From assembly GCA_963764165.1 (NCBI GenBank), contig CAVXRD010000003.1, positions 224,001 through 288,000 on the forward strand: a stretch of 64,000 nt of DNA. Reading direction: 5' to 3'. Position numbers and translations under genes: made by a program. Every line of letters begins with the position of its first letter. Positions within the stretch are counted from its first letter, which is position 1. Under the pieces are notes generated by a model. It was not told the DNA's origin, made no database searches, and saw nothing but the letters and a program-made list of their open reading frames with translations. Below are positions 57,380 through 64,000 of this stretch, piece after piece. The DNA comes from an uncultured Verrucomicrobiae bacterium. Lineage in GTDB: Bacteria > Verrucomicrobiota > Verrucomicrobiia > Limisphaerales > Palsa-1400.

Positions 57380-57661
57380 TTATACGCCGGTCTTCAGCGT
57401 GTCGCGATGCTCGTCGATCGCGTTCGCGATGGCGTTCACGCTGCTGAGCATGGCGCGGGCTTTCGCGGCATCGGAAATCTTGATGCCATAATTCTTGTCG
57501 AGCGCGACCACAAGCTGCAGCGCGTCCACCGAGTCCAAGCCGAGGCTGTCCGGCCCAAACAGAGGCTGGCCGTCACCGATTTCCTCGGGCGTTACTTTGA
57601 GCATCAGGTCGTCGACCAGCATGCGTTTAATGTCCACTTTGAGCTGTTCCGATTCTGTCAT
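57380..57661 (-). CDS. Acyl carrier protein
   Basis: LFGPDSLGLDSVDALQLVV...YGIKI phosphopantetheine site. Confidence 0.92.
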   Translation of the reverse strand: MTESEQLKVDIKRMLVDDLMLKVTPEEIGDGQPLFGPDSLGLDSVDALQLVVALDKNYGIKISDAAKARAMLSSVNAIANAIDEHRDTLKTGV

Positions 57662-57703
57662 GTCAAACCTTTTTCTTTTCTCGATGCTTATCTTATCACC
57701 ATT

Positions 57704-58720
57704 TCACGCGCCATCAACTACGGACAAAAATCTGGCGCCGATGGCCTGCTGGCTTACTCCCACCACCGATACCGTCGCCGCTGGAAACGCGCCGCGAGCC
57801 AGCGCGTCGCATGCGGTCACGCATTGCCACGCCGCGGACGCTGTGAAGGCTTCGCCAAGCACCGTTTTGGGATGGATGCGCGCGCCGTTCCAATCCTGCC
57901 ACGCGGCAGTTTCCGCCTCGTCGAAACGCCGGCGATTGCAGATGCCATCGCAAAGGAGTTCATCTTGCGCCAGCGCCGGCAGTTGATTCCGCGCCGCGCG
58001 CGCCGCCTTTGCGCGGCATTGGCCGCCGGCCATGGTGAATCCGTCCGTGACGGCATCCAATTCCGCCAGTGCGCCAGCGCCATTCTTTGTCAAATATACA
58101 GCACCAGCGCCGCTGGCGTAAATCGCATCACGCGCAAACAGCCTGAACGCGTCCGCCACCAGCCAGTCCAATTCCTCCGACCCGATGACGATGCAGCCGT
58201 CCACCTGGTCCTGCGCCAGCCATTCTGCCGCGAGGGCCAGGCCTTGCACAAACATCCCATCGTCGCCGACCAGCGTAGCACTGGGCGCGGTGGTTCCAAA
58301 GTAGGCCGCCAGATGGCTGCCGGGCGCGTTGAAAACCGTTTCGGGAAAAATCAGCGGACTGGCCTTCGACGGGTCGCGCAGCACTTCCTCGAAGAACCGC
58401 CTCGTGTAGGGGATCAAGCCGCTGAGCATCGCGACGACGATTCCCAGCCGCGCGGGCTTATTCGAGCCTATGGCTTCCAGCGCTGCCGCGACAATGTGTT
58501 GCGACATGACGCTCACCCTGCGCAGACGGCCGTGGCTGGCAAACTCCAGACGCGTCGGCGAGTTCGGCACCGCCCGAATCCGCAAGGGCTTTGCCCAGCC
58601 CGGGCGCGCAAGATCACGCACCGCGAGTGGCGCGTTGGCGGCCACTGCGTCGCGCATGGCGGGCACGCCCCACCCCGCGGGAGAAACAGCGCCGATTCCA
58701 TTTATGAAAATGCGGCTCAC
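57704..58720 (-). CDS. Ketosynthase-like protein lacking catalytic residues (chain-length-factor-like)
   Basis: GIGAVSPAG, SPLIFPETVFNAPGSH; TLVGDDG where Cys is expected; GEAFTAS in place of GH; GTGA overlap with the KS. Confidence 0.8.
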   Translation of the reverse strand: MSRIFINGIGAVSPAGWGVPAMRDAVAANAPLAVRDLARPGWAKPLRIRAVPNSPTRLEFASHGRLRRVSVMSQHIVAAALEAIGSNKPARLGIVVAMLSGLIPYTRRFFEEVLRDPSKASPLIFPETVFNAPGSHLAAYFGTTAPSATLVGDDGMFVQGLALAAEWLAQDQVDGCIVIGSEELDWLVADAFRLFARDAIYASGAGAVYLTKNGAGALAELDAVTDGFTMAGGQCRAKAARAARNQLPALAQDELLCDGICNRRRFDEAETAAWQDWNGARIHPKTVLGEAFTASAAWQCVTACDALARGAFPAATVSVVGVSQQAIGARFLSVVDGA

Positions 58721-59964
58721 GTCCACCTCCGCATGACCAGTGTTGCGTTCGCGCCACCGAAGCCGAAGGAGTTTGACAGGGCAATTTCGAGCTTCGCGTC
58801 TGTTGGCTCGCGCACCACTTTGAAGTGGCAGGCAGGATCCACCGTTCCAATGGCCGTTTCCGGGGGCTGCCACTGCCCTTGCAGCGCCATCAAACAAACC
58901 ACTGCCTCGACTGCCCCCGCCGCGCCGAGCAAATGCCCGATGCTCGCCTTCGTGGAACTCACCGGGAGGCTTGCCGCCCGCGCGCCCGCCCAGCGATTGA
59001 TGGCGGCTGCTTCGGTCACATCGTTTTGCGGAGTCGCAGTTCCATGAGCATTGACGTAATCAACTTGCTCGGGGGTCACGCCCGCCATCGCACAGGCCGC
59101 ATTCATTGCGCCGAGGGCGGCGTCGCCGTTGGGGTGCGGTTGCGTCAAATGATGAATGTCAGTCGTGGCGCCGTAGCCAATAATTTCACCCAATATTTCC
59201 GCGCCGCGCTTTTGCGCATTTTCCAGCGATTCAAGAGCGAGCATCGCCGCGCCCTCCCCGAGCGTGAGGCCATCGCGCGCCGCGTCGAATGGGCGGCATG
59301 TCGTGGTGGAAAGCGCCTGCAGCGAGTCGAATCCGGCAAAGGTCAGCCGGCAAATCGCGTCGTAGCCGCCGGTGAAAACACGCGAGGCCGCGCCTCCACG
59401 GATCAATTGAAACGCATGGCCAATGGCGTTGCTCCCGGAAGCGCAGGCATTGGAAATGACCGTGACGGTTCCGGCAAATCCAAACGCATTGCAAAGCTCG
59501 AGGCCCTGCCGGTGCAATTGATATTGCATGACGCGCGTTGCCTGTTTTCGCTGGCTGGAGGGTTTTGAAATGGCATGCACCAAATATTCTTCGCCGCACG
59601 ACATCGCGCCGCTGGTCGTTCCGAGCATCACTGGAATATTCTCGCCGGGATTCCACCCAGCCTGCGTCCAGCATTCGTGGGCCGCGATCAATAGGAAGCG
59701 TCCGGCGCGGTCAAGTCGATTTGCAGCTTTAGTTGACAGGAGAGTTTTGGGAAGTTCGCTGGGCAGGTCAATTTCAGCGGCTGACTTGGCTCGCTGCCCG
59801 CTCACGTCAAAAAGTGTCACCGGGCGAAAGGCTTTCCGGCCAGCGCGGAATCCCGCCGCATTCAATTTCCAGCCCGCGCCAAGAGCGGTAATAACACCAG
59901 CGCCGGTTACGACTACTCGGTGCGTCTTGGAGGGGGCGGAATTTTGTGAGCGTGAAAACAGCAC
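58717..59964 (-). CDS. fabF: Beta-ketoacyl-ACP synthase II-like ketosynthase
   Basis: SNACASG (Cys), NAHGTAT (His), STKASIGHLLGAAG (His), SNSFGFGG. Confidence 0.93.
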   Translation of the reverse strand: MLFSRSQNSAPSKTHRVVVTGAGVITALGAGWKLNAAGFRAGRKAFRPVTLFDVSGQRAKSAAEIDLPSELPKTLLSTKAANRLDRAGRFLLIAAHECWTQAGWNPGENIPVMLGTTSGAMSCGEEYLVHAISKPSSQRKQATRVMQYQLHRQGLELCNAFGFAGTVTVISNACASGSNAIGHAFQLIRGGAASRVFTGGYDAICRLTFAGFDSLQALSTTTCRPFDAARDGLTLGEGAAMLALESLENAQKRGAEILGEIIGYGATTDIHHLTQPHPNGDAALGAMNAACAMAGVTPEQVDYVNAHGTATPQNDVTEAAAINRWAGARAASLPVSSTKASIGHLLGAAGAVEAVVCLMALQGQWQPPETAIGTVDPACHFKVVREPTDAKLEIALSNSFGFGGANATLVMRRWT

Positions 59965-59974
59965 AGGGCGCGCC

Positions 59975-61003
59975 TCAGACCGGAACTTGCGCCGCCCCGC
60001 ATTGATAGAATTCCGCCAAGCCCTGCCGCGACGGTTCCAATCCCTCCGCCGCCATTGCTTCGAGAACCCGCTCTTCAGTCATGATGAAACGCTCGCGCTT
60101 GTAAATCACATAGTCCTCGCGCAGCCGGCTCGGGGTCATATTGATGGTGACGAGATTGGCGCCTGCCGCAAGGCCCTGCCGGTAGCCATCCTTGGCGGCG
60201 AGATTCAACGCGCTCACCGCCGGGATAATCCAGCCGGGCCGCATCAAGCGCATGGCGGCGATGCAGTTGAATGTCCATCCGGCGTTCGCCGGCGCCAGGC
60301 CCCGCATTGGCGTGTCCTCGCCGGGAATGAACGGACTGACACTGCAGCCGCCCAGCGGCAGCGAGGCCGCGTATTCCAAATTGCGCAGCCACGAAGCTGG
60401 CGTCTGCCCTGGCAGCCCACCGATAAATCCCGAGCTGACGAACCATCCCGTTTCCGCGAGATGCCGGATGTCGCGCTCCCGTTCCTCCAAGGTTCCAGGC
60501 GCCTTGATGCGGAGAAATTCCTCCGGATCGCCGTTCTCGAATTTCATGATGTAAATGGACGCGCCCACGCTCCGCAATTGCGCGTAGAGATCAGGCTGCA
60601 AATTGCCAAGGCAAACGCTGATGCCGATATTCCGCTCGCGCCGAACCAGCTTGATCAAAGGCAGCACTACTTCGCGCACCGCCACGGGATCCTCGCCGGT
60701 CTGGATGTTGAGGTCGGTCACACTTGCGGGAATATGATTGACGAGCATCTCCGCGATTTCCTCGGCCTTGGCGCGGAACCGGGGGAGCTGCCGATTGTCT
60801 CGCCGCATGCCGCAGTACCAGCAATTTTGCCGGCAAAAATTGGAGACTTCGACCACAGCCCGGACAAAGACACGATTCCCGAATTGGCCGCGGGTCGCGG
60901 TGGCCGCGCGTTCATGAAGCTTCGCCTGCTCGGTTCCGGCAGCGGTCAAGTCGCGCTCGTTTGGATAGTAAACCGTTTCCGACACTCTGTTAAATAAAGT
61001 CAC
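59975..61003 (-). CDS. Radical SAM enzyme, HydE/BioB/PylB-like family
   Basis: EVSNFCRQNCWYCGMRRDN, QTGEDP, GLPGQT, PFIPGEDTP, GANLVTINMTP...YVIY. Confidence 0.88.
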   Translation of the reverse strand: MTLFNRVSETVYYPNERDLTAAGTEQAKLHERAATATRGQFGNRVFVRAVVEVSNFCRQNCWYCGMRRDNRQLPRFRAKAEEIAEMLVNHIPASVTDLNIQTGEDPVAVREVVLPLIKLVRRERNIGISVCLGNLQPDLYAQLRSVGASIYIMKFENGDPEEFLRIKAPGTLEERERDIRHLAETGWFVSSGFIGGLPGQTPASWLRNLEYAASLPLGGCSVSPFIPGEDTPMRGLAPANAGWTFNCIAAMRLMRPGWIIPAVSALNLAAKDGYRQGLAAGANLVTINMTPSRLREDYVIYKRERFIMTEERVLEAMAAEGLEPSRQGLAEFYQCGAAQVPV

Positions 61004-61088: not shown

Positions 61089-62297
61089 TCAAGCCCGGAC
61101 GCTGGAGCGAAGCGTGATGTGAACAATCTCGGCGGGGGCATTGACGCGGAGTGGAAACCAATTCCCGACGCCGTTGGAGACAATCATCTGGCTTTCCGCA
61201 GTCGTGTACAATCCCGACCAATAGCGAAACATGGCGGGACCAAACCCATGCTGGCTGTCAAACATCAATTGCCCGCCGTGCGTGTGCCCCGAGAGTGTTA
61301 GCGGGATCTTCGCCTCCGCCGCCGGATCAAACGCGTGCGGATGATGGGACAGCAGAATTGGAAAAGCGTCCGGCTGCCGGCGCTGCATCATTTTCTGGAT
61401 GGCCGCGTTCGCCGCTTGAACCCGCTTTGGCCCCTCCGCGCGAGTCCAGCGCAGCCCGTAAAGTTCCACAGGACAGCCGCGAATTGGAACGACGACAGAC
61501 TCGTCGAGAAGCAGCGGAATTCCGGCGGCTTTGACGCGGCGCTCGAACTCCTCCCCGTTCTCAATCAAATCGTGATTGCCTTCGATCATCCACGACCCGT
61601 ATTTCGACTCCATGGACTTCACCAGGAAGATGCCTTCGGACAGATCGCTTAATGCGTCATTGATGAGATCGCCTGTCAACATCACGACGTCAGCGCGCAT
61701 TTCATTGGTCACGCGCACCATCTCCTTCAGCACACGGCCGCTCGTCAGTTTGCCGACGTGGATGTCACTCACATGCGCGATGGTCATTCCATCGAGTTGC
61801 TTGGGGAGCGCAGGCAAATTCAGCGTGAACCGGCGCACGCGGAATTGATTTAATTGAGCCAGCGCGACACCAGTAAGGCCGATGCTGAAAATAGCGGGAG
61901 CAACCGCAACGCTGGTTCCGAAGAACTCCCTGCGGGTGAGTGACTCTCCGTTTGCGTTCGACGGTTCGCCCGTCGGACCGGGATGTTTTGCGGCGCGCAT
62001 CAGCAGTCGAAATAATCCCAGCAATCCTGCCGCAACACCAATGACGATAACGAAAGCCAGGCCAAAAAAATGCCATGTGACTATGGACGTGAAGACAATC
62101 TTGGGAGTTTCGTGCAGCCATTGGACACGCCAAATGCGCTCCGCAAAGATGGCCAGGAAGCCGGCCATCTGCGCGGCCATGAAGGCTCCCAGCGCGACGC
62201 GCCAAACCCGCTGCTGGGCCAAACGCGATACCGCCCACCACCACGCCACGTCCAACGCCAGCATCACTACGATGATGCCAATGACAATCTTAAACAC
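61089..62297 (-). CDS. Membrane-anchored metallophosphoesterase (YkuE/YaeI-like)
   Basis: SDIHVG, TGDLI, GNHD, LSHHP, LSGHTHGGQ; N-terminal TMs. Confidence 0.92.
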   Translation of the reverse strand: MFKIVIGIIVVMLALDVAWWWAVSRLAQQRVWRVALGAFMAAQMAGFLAIFAERIWRVQWLHETPKIVFTSIVTWHFFGLAFVIVIGVAAGLLGLFRLLMRAAKHPGPTGEPSNANGESLTRREFFGTSVAVAPAIFSIGLTGVALAQLNQFRVRRFTLNLPALPKQLDGMTIAHVSDIHVGKLTSGRVLKEMVRVTNEMRADVVMLTGDLINDALSDLSEGIFLVKSMESKYGSWMIEGNHDLIENGEEFERRVKAAGIPLLLDESVVVPIRGCPVELYGLRWTRAEGPKRVQAANAAIQKMMQRRQPDAFPILLSHHPHAFDPAAEAKIPLTLSGHTHGGQLMFDSQHGFGPAMFRYWSGLYTTAESQMIVSNGVGNWFPLRVNAPAEIVHITLRSSVRA

Positions 62298-62343
62298 GTC
62301 GCACCATAAGGCCGCGCGCCCAGGCTCGCAATGAGGCGAAACC

Positions 62344-63714
62344 TCACTTCGCGCCGATGGCCACCACGTGGCCTGCGGTGCGGACAAAAATGGTTCCGTC
62401 GGAAATTGCGGGAGTCGCCATGCAGACTTCGTCCATTTTGTTGGTGGCGAGGACGTTGAATTCGTTGCCCGGTTTTACGACGTAAATGGTCCCCTGCTCG
62501 CTCGCAAAATAAAGCTTCCCGGGCGACGCCACCGGCGATGACGTGAATCCGTCATCGCCAGAGCCAAGGCGCTCTTTGTAAATAGAATTGCCGGTGGCGG
62601 CGGCGAAACACGAGAGCACACCGGTTGTCTGGCAGGAATAAAGGTTGTCTCCGTAAATCAGCGGAGTCTCCATGTAAGAGGCGCCACGCGGCGTGCTCCA
62701 CGCGATTTCCGCGTTAGTCGCCGCCCCGTCCTTCAAGGATATGTCTCCGGTCGCGTTCTCGCGCACCGCGAAGATAGGACTGCGCGGCCCGTGGGCGCTC
62801 ATGATAAAAATCAACCCGTGCCACATGACCGGCGTTGGCACCGGGCAATCGCCGCCGCCGGCCAGGCGCCAAATCTCCTCGCCGGTGTTCAAATCGTAAC
62901 CGCCCATGTGCTTCCAGCCGTTGACCACCAATTGCGGCTTCGGTGCCGTCGTGCAGATGTTGGGCGTGCTCCACGTCCCGGTGTCGTCCCGTTTGGTGCG
63001 CCAAATTTCGCCGCCATTTTCAAGATTGAAGGCCGCGACAAAACCGTTGCTGACGATGTCGCATTGGACGAACAAACGATTATTATAAATGACAGGAGAG
63101 CTCGCGAAACCCCAGTCCAGCGACGACATCTCCGGCGCGGGATGATCGTTGTAAACAATAGGACTGGCCCGCAATTTGCCCAGATCTTTTTTCCACCGAA
63201 GATTGCCGTTGAGGTCGTAGCAATAAAGCCCCTCGGAGCCAAAGAACGCCACGAGGTTTGTTCCATCTGTCGCCATCGTGCAATTGGCGTGCGTGGCCTT
63301 TGGATGCCGCGCCACATTCGGCTTTCCTTCGTGGGCCGTCGCCTGCCACAGGATGCCGCCTGATTTCCGATTTAGGCAACACACCTTCCATTCTTGAATG
63401 TCATTGTCCTCGGCGGATTCGGGATCGCCATAGACGCCCACTTTGAGTGGAGCGGTCTTTGCTTTGTTGACAGCCGTCGTGACGAAGAGGCGATCACCCC
63501 AAATGATCGGACTCGAGTGCCCGAGCCCTGGAATCGCCGTTTTCCAAAGTATATTTTCGGATTTGGCGACGTTCCAAGTTGTTGGCGTTGGCGCCCCCTC
63601 AGCGATTCCATTGGCGCCCGACCCGCGAAAGGACGGCCAGTTCGTCTCCGAGGCTTCGGCAAGAGCAATTGAGAGAAGAAGGGCTGTGATGGAGATAACT
63701 TTCGAGTTTGGCAT
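62344..63714 (-). CDS. Secreted PQQ-binding-like beta-propeller protein
   Basis: Signal peptide, NWPSFRG, WKTAIPGLGHSSP, repeated SSP/W motifs, ATPAI. Confidence 0.9.
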   Translation of the reverse strand: MPNSKVISITALLLSIALAEASETNWPSFRGSGANGIAEGAPTPTTWNVAKSENILWKTAIPGLGHSSPIIWGDRLFVTTAVNKAKTAPLKVGVYGDPESAEDNDIQEWKVCCLNRKSGGILWQATAHEGKPNVARHPKATHANCTMATDGTNLVAFFGSEGLYCYDLNGNLRWKKDLGKLRASPIVYNDHPAPEMSSLDWGFASSPVIYNNRLFVQCDIVSNGFVAAFNLENGGEIWRTKRDDTGTWSTPNICTTAPKPQLVVNGWKHMGGYDLNTGEEIWRLAGGGDCPVPTPVMWHGLIFIMSAHGPRSPIFAVRENATGDISLKDGAATNAEIAWSTPRGASYMETPLIYGDNLYSCQTTGVLSCFAAATGNSIYKERLGSGDDGFTSSPVASPGKLYFASEQGTIYVVKPGNEFNVLATNKMDEVCMATPAISDGTIFVRTAGHVVAIGAK

Positions 63715-63840
63715 AAACGACAGCGAAATACTGCTTGCGCTTGTCGCGAGATGCTCGCCGCGCCGCGCCGGAGATGTCAAGCCGCTTGTCAATTTCAGAT
63801 TCAACGGCATGATGACGGCCAATGTTTTCAGAGGCAATAT

Positions 63841-64000
63841 ATGGAGCCGTCCACCGCGCGATCTGAGTTCATAAAGCGCTGGATTCGCAAGGGTGTCACG
63901 ATGGCGCTCGTCACCGTTCTATTCGGATATTTCTACCAATGGGCGGCGCCCAAGGCATTCCCCTCGGCGCCACCACCGGGATTCGCGCTTGGCATGCTGC
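63841..64000 (+). CDS. Hypothetical membrane protein (partial)
   Basis: MEPSTARSEFIKRWIRKGVTMALVTVLFGYFYQW... open to the window end. Confidence 0.45.
   Translation, partial: MEPSTARSEFIKRWIRKGVTMALVTVLFGYFYQWAAPKAFPSAPPPGFALGML

Follow-up and report, generated by a model that had tools for sequence, protein, structure and literature searches.

Aryl polyene clusters are among the closest described systems. The ape cluster of E. coli CFT073 (apeA-R) contains a ketosynthase (KS), an inactive partner, an acyl carrier protein (ACP), an acyl-ACP ligase, a dehydratase, an MMPL protein and a LolA-like protein, all of which it has in common with the cluster described here. FabG, GT2 and a PlsC-type acyltransferase are further ape parts that are found in relatives of this cluster. 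The aryl-polyene ligase ApeH puts a free acid starter onto the ACP (PMC8253772). A comparable core of an active KS with a triad-less partner, an ACP and FabZ is shared with TIGR04072 clusters and with anammox Cluster I (amxACP, amxFabZ and amxFabF2-amxFabFmut; bioRxiv 10.64898/2026.05.19.726425). The same preprint reports a Val at the Cys site of amxFabFmut, and the Cluster I genes given there include no HydE-fold enzyme. In ladderane-type clusters, radical SAM enzymes have been proposed to act in chain tailoring.

The barrel shared by HydE, PylB and BioB has so far been linked to a handful of demanding radical reactions, in hydrogenase, pyrrolysine and biotin synthesis, and the substrates of these enzymes are small and enclosed. 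PylB sets the example for the rearrangement of a free amino acid. Its substrate is lysine (PMC8124187). According to PMC8855341, HydE makes adenosyl-cysteine cross-links and binds an Fe(CO)2CN species via Met224.

The window analysed here is a 64,000-nucleotide stretch of DNA. It carries a four-gene cassette, which forms one arm of a larger aryl-polyene-like cluster and would build the chain; in this genome the cluster is spread over two contigs:

59975..61003, minus strand: 342-aa radical SAM enzyme with the HydE fold, from a clade that is uncharacterised
58717..59964, minus strand: FabF-like KS (415 aa) with an intact Cys174-His307-His344 triad
57704..58720, minus strand: catalytically dead KS homologue, predicted partner resembling a chain-length factor (CLF) (338 aa), with Asp154 at the Cys site
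57380..57661, minus strand: discrete ACP (93 aa) with Ser44 in LGLDSVD
63841..64000, plus strand: 5' part of F10, a small conserved protein (118 aa, with hydrophobic stretches) that runs beyond the window
G000:C3:288181-288891, minus strand: papain-fold protein, just past the window
C3:289030-290289, plus strand: acyl-AMP ligase, just past the window
G000:C4:101505-107572, minus strand: export arm

The initial annotation had described four co-oriented, closely packed genes, and the minus-strand reading frames and their coordinates confirm this: in gene order, they are separated by a 10-bp gap, a GTGA overlap and a 42-bp gap. In the database record of the radical SAM protein (P0005) the start lies six codons later, giving 336 aa. 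The KS was rightly called intact, as Cys174, His307 and His344 are retained in all 51 aligned copies. The same holds for the discrete ACP, which is 39% identical to E. coli ApeE and whose Ser44 attachment site is kept in 40 of 40 aligned copies. For the third gene, the claimed KS homology without the Cys stands, although the residue that replaces it is not fixed. An hhalign comparison with the KS identified a full-length homologue (96.8%, E 2.8e-10, 307 columns) in which Asp154 lies opposite Cys174 and neither His is kept; a BLASTP search of the KS against this protein gave no match, and its Pfam match stayed below the cut-off. Among 52 relatives the commonest residues at the Cys site are D (20), P (12), A (8) and E (5). 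An active KS, an adjoining triad-less homologue and a discrete ACP with its Ser site are the hallmarks of a type II KS/CLF/ACP system. By the gene overlap and by precedent, the KS and its CLF-like partner probably form a functional heterodimer. Promoter and terminator scans gave no usable signal. A predicted complex of the radical SAM enzyme with the ACP scored 0.00, which was counted neither for nor against an interaction.

The export arm encodes a flavin halogenase-like enzyme, a small lipoprotein-like gene, a fusion of MMPL with a lipid-A-type acyltransferase, LolA and a FabZ-type dehydratase. When relatives are included, the cluster shows detectable homology to ApeE, ApeH, ApeM, ApeL, ApeQ, ApeJ and ApeD, and the aryl-polyene parts list of ligase, ACP, dehydratase, reductase, MMPL, LolA, GT2 and acyltransferase is covered. 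An ApeO/ApeC-type pair, a second KS like ApeR and two ACPs were, however, not recovered in pairwise comparison with CFT073. The KS is 34% and 32% identical to ApeR and ApeO, which does not exceed its identity to the housekeeping FabF (36%). The CLF gave no match to ApeC, and there is one KS and one ACP, whereas ape has the second KS ApeR and two ACPs. The same comparison gave no clear counterparts of ApeB and ApeK. The acyltransferase is fused to MMPL here and to GT2 in ape, and the radical SAM, halogenase-like and papain-fold genes are additions relative to ape. Judged by sequence comparison, the cluster is not an aryl-polyene cluster proper. The novel pathway that had been suggested for the cassette needs restating: it does not match the characterised cluster proper, but it is one arm of a larger cluster of a known kind. 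Within this cluster type, the HydE-fold enzyme is uncharacterised.

The second-best PDB match of the CLF (E 6e-5) is chain C of 9s5h, which carries a Val at the Cys site; 9s5h probably represents the anammox amxFabF2-amxFabFmut pair; the similarity of KS and CLF to this entry does not exceed that to generic FabF. In contrast to anammox Cluster I, an export arm is present. Of the 161 genomes surveyed in the order, 23 encode a TIGR04072-type B12 radical SAM homologue, and the genome studied here lacks one.

Several other parts vary. Cluster genes for FabG, GT2 and the PlsC-type acyltransferase were not found in the genome studied here, FabG is encoded in the cluster in some genomes, and no enoyl reductase was seen among the recurring cluster genes. 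F10 has no Pfam match. The papain-fold protein gave no significant Foldseek match and none in a PDB sequence search. Its assignment rests on VIA-align, where many papain-type entries were matched near the tool's background (best Z 8.2, rmsd 4.5, 159 aligned), together with the invariant Cys47/His175/Asp195.

The radical SAM enzyme carries its CxxxCxxC motif at C57/C61/C64. The structure model (pLDDT 94) is a complete barrel that superposes on HydE over 327 residues (2.1 A, Z 44.4, 27% identity), on PylB over 319 residues (Z 37.1) and on BioB with Z of about 31-33. The HydE-type motifs noted earlier are indeed present, except that the spacer between NxTP and YxxY is six residues and not three. 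In spite of its fold, the enzyme is neither HydE, PylB nor BioB, as it falls below all three family cut-offs: 177 bits against 254.6 for HydE (TIGR03956; reference enzyme from T. maritima, PDB 3ciw and 7o1o), 114.5 against 348.2 for PylB (TIGR03910; 3t7v) and 47 against 225 for BioB (TIGR00433; 1r30 and 8vcw), the latter two belonging to the same barrel family as the enzyme. The equivalents of HydE R54, E58, Q107, G109-E110, E161, R180, Y303 and Y306 are kept, which includes the SAM side. Elsewhere HydE residues have been substituted: M224 by G, M291 by T, G226 and G228 by S, S136 by C, R155 by I, V105 by N and T103 by D. In all 47 clade rows the two Met sites are occupied by Gly and Thr, and in all 31 HydE-clade rows by Met. 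Unlike HydE, the enzyme also has a KRxRFIM segment after the YxxY motif. Barrel-strand positions are polar and invariant in the 47 clade rows; D97, N99, S129, C131, K154, S190, G219, S221, S223, S264, T286 and R305 are invariant in the clade, and which residues face the pocket is predicted from the alignment to HydE.

A quick IQ-TREE analysis places the enzyme in a clade apart from HydE (clade support 100). Neither hydA, hydF nor hydG was found in its genome (97% complete) and no PylS scored above cut-off there, so that the reported lack of hyd and pyl genes in the window extends to the whole genome for hydA/F/G and pylS. A true bioB lies elsewhere in the genome, separate from the enzyme. 'HydE' and 'biotin synthase' labels on these genes, the latter given to relatives in databases, are thus wrong.

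Across the order, 161 genomes were surveyed: 87 have the pathway, 74 do not and 64 encode the enzyme. All 64 carriers have the pathway, as recognised by the CLF or the papain-fold gene, and none of the 74 pathway-negative genomes has the enzyme. The acyl-AMP ligase is found in 62 of the 64 carriers. Since 23 of the 87 pathway genomes lack the enzyme, it is optional in the pathway. At the 80 enzyme loci, a cluster gene is nearby in 65 and the KS lies downstream in 54 (within 250 nt in 31); where at least 6 kb of downstream DNA is available, the KS follows in 41 of 53. The linkage to KS, CLF and ACP that had been anticipated is thus conserved. Among 250 further genomes of the phylum, G335 from another order holds the sole clade member, divergent beside a KS-CLF-ACP-halogenase-MMPL-dehydratase run and flanked on the opposite side by acyltransferase, GT2 and ligase. 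The enzyme very probably belongs to the lipid-type pathway.

Other genes seemed to be associated with the enzyme as well, positively or negatively. A B12 radical SAM gene occurs in 8 of 64 carriers against 15 of 23 pathway genomes without the enzyme, a second halogenase in 36 of 64 against 4 of 23, and a methyltransferase in 26 of 64 against 2 of 23. These associations are significant by naive Fisher tests. After control for kinship (KS+CLF FastTree, 82 rows) only four independent pairs remain and significance is lost (sign test for the B12 enzyme), for which reason they were dropped as evidence.

The explanation that is judged best, at a chance just short of even, is that the enzyme acts on a polar acid, small and not bound to a carrier, and thereby supplies a building block of a predicted envelope lipid. 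What is directly supported is which genes are present, how they are linked and how they co-occur, together with the fold class and the altered residues; from there, the following course can be proposed. SAM would be split at the [4Fe-4S] cluster, and the 5'-deoxyadenosyl radical would attack the substrate inside the complete barrel, leading to a rearrangement as in PylB or to an adduct as in HydE. The acid would then be put onto the ACP by the acyl-AMP ligase. Subsequently, KS and CLF would elongate it with malonyl-ACP, FabG (presumably the housekeeping one in the genome studied here) and the FabZ-type dehydratase. The chain would remain polyunsaturated, as no enoyl reductase recurs in the cluster. 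The lipid-A-type acyltransferase domain of the MMPL fusion and/or the papain-fold protein with its Cys-His-Asp would shift the acyl group to a membrane anchor, followed by export via MMPL, LolA and the small lipoprotein. In genomes that lack the enzyme, the unmodified acid would give rise to a congener. The acyl-pocket motifs of the ligase are alike in 21 genomes with and 20 without the enzyme, and no ligase column convincingly tracks its presence (largest frequency difference 0.56). These unchanged motifs and the 23 of 87 pathway genomes lacking the enzyme indicate that its product is not the ligase's sole starter.

The unchanged pocket would equally fit a later step, in which the enzyme tailors the ACP- or lipid-bound acyl chain by H-abstraction and subsequent cyclisation, rearrangement or epimerisation, possibly with Cys131 as H donor. 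The enzyme heads a KS-CLF-ACP run in 31 of the 80 loci, in a slot that it shares with B12 radical SAM genes, one of which scores above the cut-off of TIGR04072 (386.5 against 360), a lipid-biosynthesis/ladderane-type family. Cys131 is invariant in the clade and Ser in HydE. However, the complete barrel, the C-terminal lid aligned to that of HydE and the polar strands favour a small polar substrate over a hydrocarbon chain, the anti-correlation with the B12 enzyme did not survive kinship control, and both enzymes occur together in 13 of the 80 loci, so that this reading is rather unlikely. Slightly less credit still is given to the polar anchor or head group as the target, be it a sugar, a nucleotide sugar or a heteroatom. 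One conceivable reaction is 5'-deoxyadenosyl addition as by HydE on sulfur, for which the adenosyl-cysteine cross-links of HydE offer a precedent. In favour of this reading, the cluster's GT2 glycosyltransferase is present in 58 of the 64 carriers. It neighbours the enzyme in 39 of 80 loci; the two genes are often directly divergent, and they also lie close together where the KS is elsewhere. Yet the genome studied here and five others keep the enzyme with no cluster GT2 match at the threshold used, 19 of 77 GT2-positive genomes lack it, and the adjacency may just mirror ancestral gene order.

A reaction of the BioB or LipA type, in which a second iron-sulfur cluster would be sacrificed to insert sulfur into the chain, is very improbable. 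The fold neighbourhood of BioB, the database labels and the further conserved Cys (C131 100%, C220 96%, C247 85%) could be read in its favour, but C220 is replaced by Asn in G335 and by Ala in one paralogue, the model puts C247 on a helix, and the BioB score is far below cut-off. Moreover, the genome's real BioB has inward barrel residues Cys69, Cys178 and Cys217, the presumed cluster ligands, which align to R48, I150 and S190; the insertion considered in the initial annotation thus found no support. Even less probable is that the gene is a true HydE or just lies beside the cluster. Profile and structure comparisons both place HydE nearest among the characterised families, but Met224 and Met291 are replaced and none of the 64 carriers has HydA. 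The nine HydA genomes of the order have a separate protein, 31-34% identical, that groups with HydE; three of these were placed on a FastTree phylogeny, in another group than the enzyme. A HydE-like protein in a hydAFG genome, unlinked to KS and ACP genes, is therefore not what was found, and the proposed repurposing of a HydE fold holds. No cluster gene is nearby in 15 of the 80 loci, some of them short contigs, though carriers keep the lipid pathway even where the gene has relocated.

A literature search, with subscription journals largely outside its coverage, found no description of the enzyme or the cluster, and a hit for 'HydE-like' in PMC9204691 did not hold up when the text was searched for the words. 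A conserved branch of this barrel that serves a lipid-type pathway suggests that these abundant and for the most part uncultured bacteria have a new reaction and a new envelope lipid. With natural variants that have or lack the enzyme and the minimal gene set of this genome, the question is directly testable.

The enzyme lies within a wider HydE-sister group that has C131 (79%), K154, S221, S264, T286 and R305 in common with the clade. Some members are fused to or flanked by adenylating ligases and carrier proteins, which speaks for the building-block reading. Of 37 relatives that were scanned, 2 are fusions with an AMP-binding ligase; such fusion proteins are only distantly related to the enzyme and have other residues at the positions of D97, N99, S129 and G219. 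For two of four inspected plasmid copies (Streptomyces viridifaciens and Bacillus mycoides), the surrounding cluster also encodes an adenylating enzyme and a carrier protein; around the remaining two, neither a ligase nor a carrier protein was found within 12 kb. Three of the four have glycosyltransferases nearby and the fourth an NAD-dependent epimerase and phosphatases, neighbours that would also suit a head-group substrate. Tentatively, and with some doubt, the sister group of HydE may make non-standard acyl building blocks for carrier-protein pathways in many phyla, the Verrucomicrobial branch starting a new class of outer-membrane polyene-like lipids with new radical chemistry. Of the genomes sampled from this order, which is common in soil and freshwater, more than half possess the pathway.

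A paralogue subgroup of the enzyme, about 55% identical and with N99D/S129T, is located away from any KS, and an MlaA-family gene adjoins it in 9 of 21 loci.

The four open reading frames of the cassette (57380..61003, minus strand) have the strand and spacing given in the initial annotation, as a re-reading of the window sequence agrees. Domain and profile searches also bear out its gene identities: a radical SAM protein (PF04055; 59975-61003, minus strand, 342 aa), here called the enzyme, a FabF-like ketosynthase (KS), a triad-less KS homologue (CLF) and an ACP. Every one of 51 aligned KS copies has an intact catalytic triad, and the ACP serine is kept in 40 of 40. In an hhalign comparison (96.8%) the CLF matches the KS family along 307 columns, and its Asp154 falls at the site of the catalytic Cys. 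The window genome, 97% complete, is assembled into 5 contigs totalling 7.0 Mb.

The enzyme is neither a HydE, a PylB nor a BioB. All three identities were tried and rejected: the enzyme scores 177 for HydE (cut-off 254.6), 114.5 for PylB (cut-off 348.2) and 47 for BioB (cut-off 225). In the whole window genome no HydA domain was found, nor any HydG, HydF or PylS over the cut-off; a true BioB is encoded elsewhere in it. The order was sampled with 161 genomes, each at least 90% complete and the window genome included. A close relative of the enzyme (E <= 1e-55, at least 55% identity) is carried by 64 of these, while 11 further genomes have only a 31-35% match. HydA occurs in nine genomes of the sample, all of them among the 11 with a weak match and none among the 64 carriers. 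On the trees, the enzyme's clade is fully supported and separate from the HydE group, which contains three added HydA-linked proteins and may also include other near-HydE proteins.

The predicted structure of the enzyme (pLDDT 94.4) compares with HydE at Z 44.4 and with PylB at Z 37.1. Residues were compared by alignment to Thermotoga (T.) maritima HydE and by counting residues per column over 47 rows of the clade, 28 of the sister group and 31 of the HydE group. In this alignment the SAM-binding residues are common to HydE and the clade. Other positions differ: Met224 of HydE is replaced by Gly, Met291 by Thr, Gly226 and Gly228 by Ser, Ser136 by Cys, Arg155 by Ile, Val105 by Asn and Thr103 by Asp. 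According to passages in PMC8855341, the iron-carbonyl species of HydE is held at Met224.

The cassette belongs to a larger cluster, of which it makes up one arm. The recurring neighbours in related loci include a flavin halogenase-like enzyme (all six full-length copies have WxWxIP), a small lipoprotein-like gene, a fusion of an MMPL transporter with a lipid-A-type acyltransferase, LolA, a FabZ-type dehydratase, an AMP-binding ligase, a DUF8321/8322 protein, a small hydrophobic protein and a GT2. Optional genes encode FabG, a PlsC-type acyltransferase, a GT2-deacetylase fusion, methyltransferases, a second halogenase-like enzyme and two B12 radical SAM enzymes, one of them above the TIGR04072 cut-off. 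Just past the end of the window, after two unrelated genes, the window genome encodes the small protein, the DUF protein and the ligase; its export arm is located on a separate contig (C4). No cluster GT2, FabG, second halogenase, methyltransferase or B12 enzyme was found in this genome. Its cluster is therefore a minimal version, yet the enzyme is kept intact. A membrane metallophosphoesterase gene and a PQQ-type beta-propeller gene (61089-63837, minus strand) separate the radical SAM gene from the remainder of the cluster; neither recurs in related loci. The DUF protein is located as follows:

G000:C3:288181-288891 (window genome, contig of the window; L040:4182-4913), minus strand: DUF8321/DUF8322 protein, just past the window; core pathway gene, 87 of 161 genomes

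Its Cys, His and Asp are invariant, and a papain-type fold is predicted, with many papain-type rows and a best Z of 8.2, which is near the tool's background. The protein is thus a candidate transacylase or thioesterase, and the invariant residues together with the predicted fold offer a first clue to what this family does.

The enzyme is genuinely linked to the KS cassette. Among the best 80 of 294 loci, a KS follows the enzyme gene in 54, at no more than 250 nt in 31; of the 53 loci with 6 kb of room, 41 have a KS following. Some cluster gene is near the enzyme in 65 of the best 80. By their titles, 73 of these 80 come from Verrucomicrobiota (Limisphaerales, Pedosphaera and similar), six bear other labels and one is unclassified. 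Clade members at L044, L053, L066, L080, L099 and L118 are labelled Bifidobacteriaceae, Methylomirabilota, Limnocylindria or Kapaibacterium, which is likely mislabelling or misbinning, since several show the full Verrucomicrobial gene order.

The CLF is present in 60 of the 64 carriers; the four without it all carry the papain-fold gene of the cluster, three of them together with the KS orthologue. With the CLF or the papain-fold gene as marker (two weak matches to the latter left out), the pathway occurs in 87 of the 161 genomes, including all carriers, and 23 of the 87 are without the enzyme. Related genomes are not independent, but the enzyme's presence switches at least seven times on a KS+CLF tree. 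Among 250 other genomes of the phylum there is a single clade member, adjoining the same cluster in a different arrangement. The simplest reading is an old cluster member that was lost several times, although the tree alone does not separate gain from loss. Within the window genome's own genus the enzyme is found in two of four other genomes (G001 and G004 compared with G002 and G003); G001 is also without the CLF, ligase and papain-fold genes.

E. coli CFT073 apeA-R served as aryl-polyene reference, with functions taken from Table 1 and text passages of PMC8253772. The accessory parts are homologous: the ACP is 39% identical to ApeE, the ligase 23% to ApeH, the MMPL protein 23% to ApeM and LolA 28% to ApeL; in relatives of the cluster, the GT2 reaches 31-36% to ApeJ and the acyltransferase 36% to ApeD. 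The core, however, is unlike. At 32-34% identity, the KS resembles ApeO/ApeR less closely than it does housekeeping FabF (36%), and the CLF gave no match to ApeC of CFT073. In the anammox cluster, as outlined in bioRxiv 10.64898/2026.05.19.726425, an active and a triad-less FabF form a heterodimer and are accompanied by a B12 radical SAM enzyme. The window cassette likewise pairs an active KS with a triad-less partner, the heterodimer being a feature of the anammox pair. Accessory homology, anammox likeness and the unlike core together suggest a system that would work like an aryl-polyene-lipid pathway and touch the ladderane-type family via its optional genes. The feature is real and conserved, a known kind of cluster containing an uncharacterised radical SAM family; a literature search covering mostly titles and abstract openings found no description of the enzyme or the cluster.

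A profile search covered 1.8 billion representatives. Among the best 150 matches listed, a diverse sister group joins the enzyme clade on the tree (53 rows, support 88, not starred) and has Cys131, Lys154, Ser221, Ser264, Thr286 and Arg305 in common with it. Among the 37 scanned matches, an AMP-binding ligase is part of the same protein in two (Roseibium, Omnitrophota) and a methyltransferase in five. Four sister-group copies were inspected from 13 matched plasmid records: two are in clusters that also encode a ligase and a carrier protein, three have glycosyltransferases nearby, and after one comes a gene whose annotation is coproporphyrinogen-III oxidase family.

All chemistry proposed for the enzyme and the cluster is what we infer. 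Tentatively, the enzyme would act on a substrate that is small, free and polar, and the resulting product would be adenylated and loaded on the carrier. This reading is favoured because of the ligase and carrier contexts of the sister group, the complete barrel and the polar strand residues. A point against it is that the ligase's pocket motifs do not differ between 21 genomes that have the enzyme and 20 that lack it; therefore, either the ligase takes both forms or the enzyme acts later. Later action on the chain is a possible but weaker candidate, and action on the head group is slightly less probable again.

Sulfur insertion, raised in the initial annotation, is unlikely; the cysteines in the barrel of the BioB that this genome encodes correspond to Arg48, Ile150 and Ser190 of the enzyme. 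Less probable still is a true HydE or a chance neighbour, set beside the separate clade and the recurring linkage. Correlations of the enzyme with the B12 enzyme, the second halogenase and the methyltransferase were lost once kinship was controlled.

The genome's BioB (G000:C3:572580-573503, minus strand) has a Cys ten residues ahead of its CxxxCxxC motif, which we take to be the pattern of a 4Fe-5S type biotin synthase.

Natural-product-like clusters of Streptomyces viridifaciens (L143, CP090840.1 493171-510148) and Bacillus mycoides (L144, NZ_CP035996.1 427127-439365) combine a HydE-sister radical SAM gene with adenylating enzymes, carrier proteins and glycosyltransferases, and both species are culturable hosts for studying this family. 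At three further sister-group loci (L147:9583-12085, L148:9222-11723, L145:11866-14597), the HydE-like gene is directly ahead of a longer second gene. As the latter is annotated as coproporphyrinogen-III oxidase family in Bradyrhizobium, and protein P0179 has two radical SAM domains and a similar N-terminal part, the arrangement suggests a recurring two-enzyme unit.

A paralogue subgroup of the enzyme (L036, L037, L149-L153, L236-L246) is about 55% identical and shows N99D, S129T and mostly I150Y and N55S. It occurs as a second copy in 5 of the 64 carriers. Its genes lie away from any KS gene, and 9 of 21 loci adjoin an MlaA-domain protein of about 650 aa.
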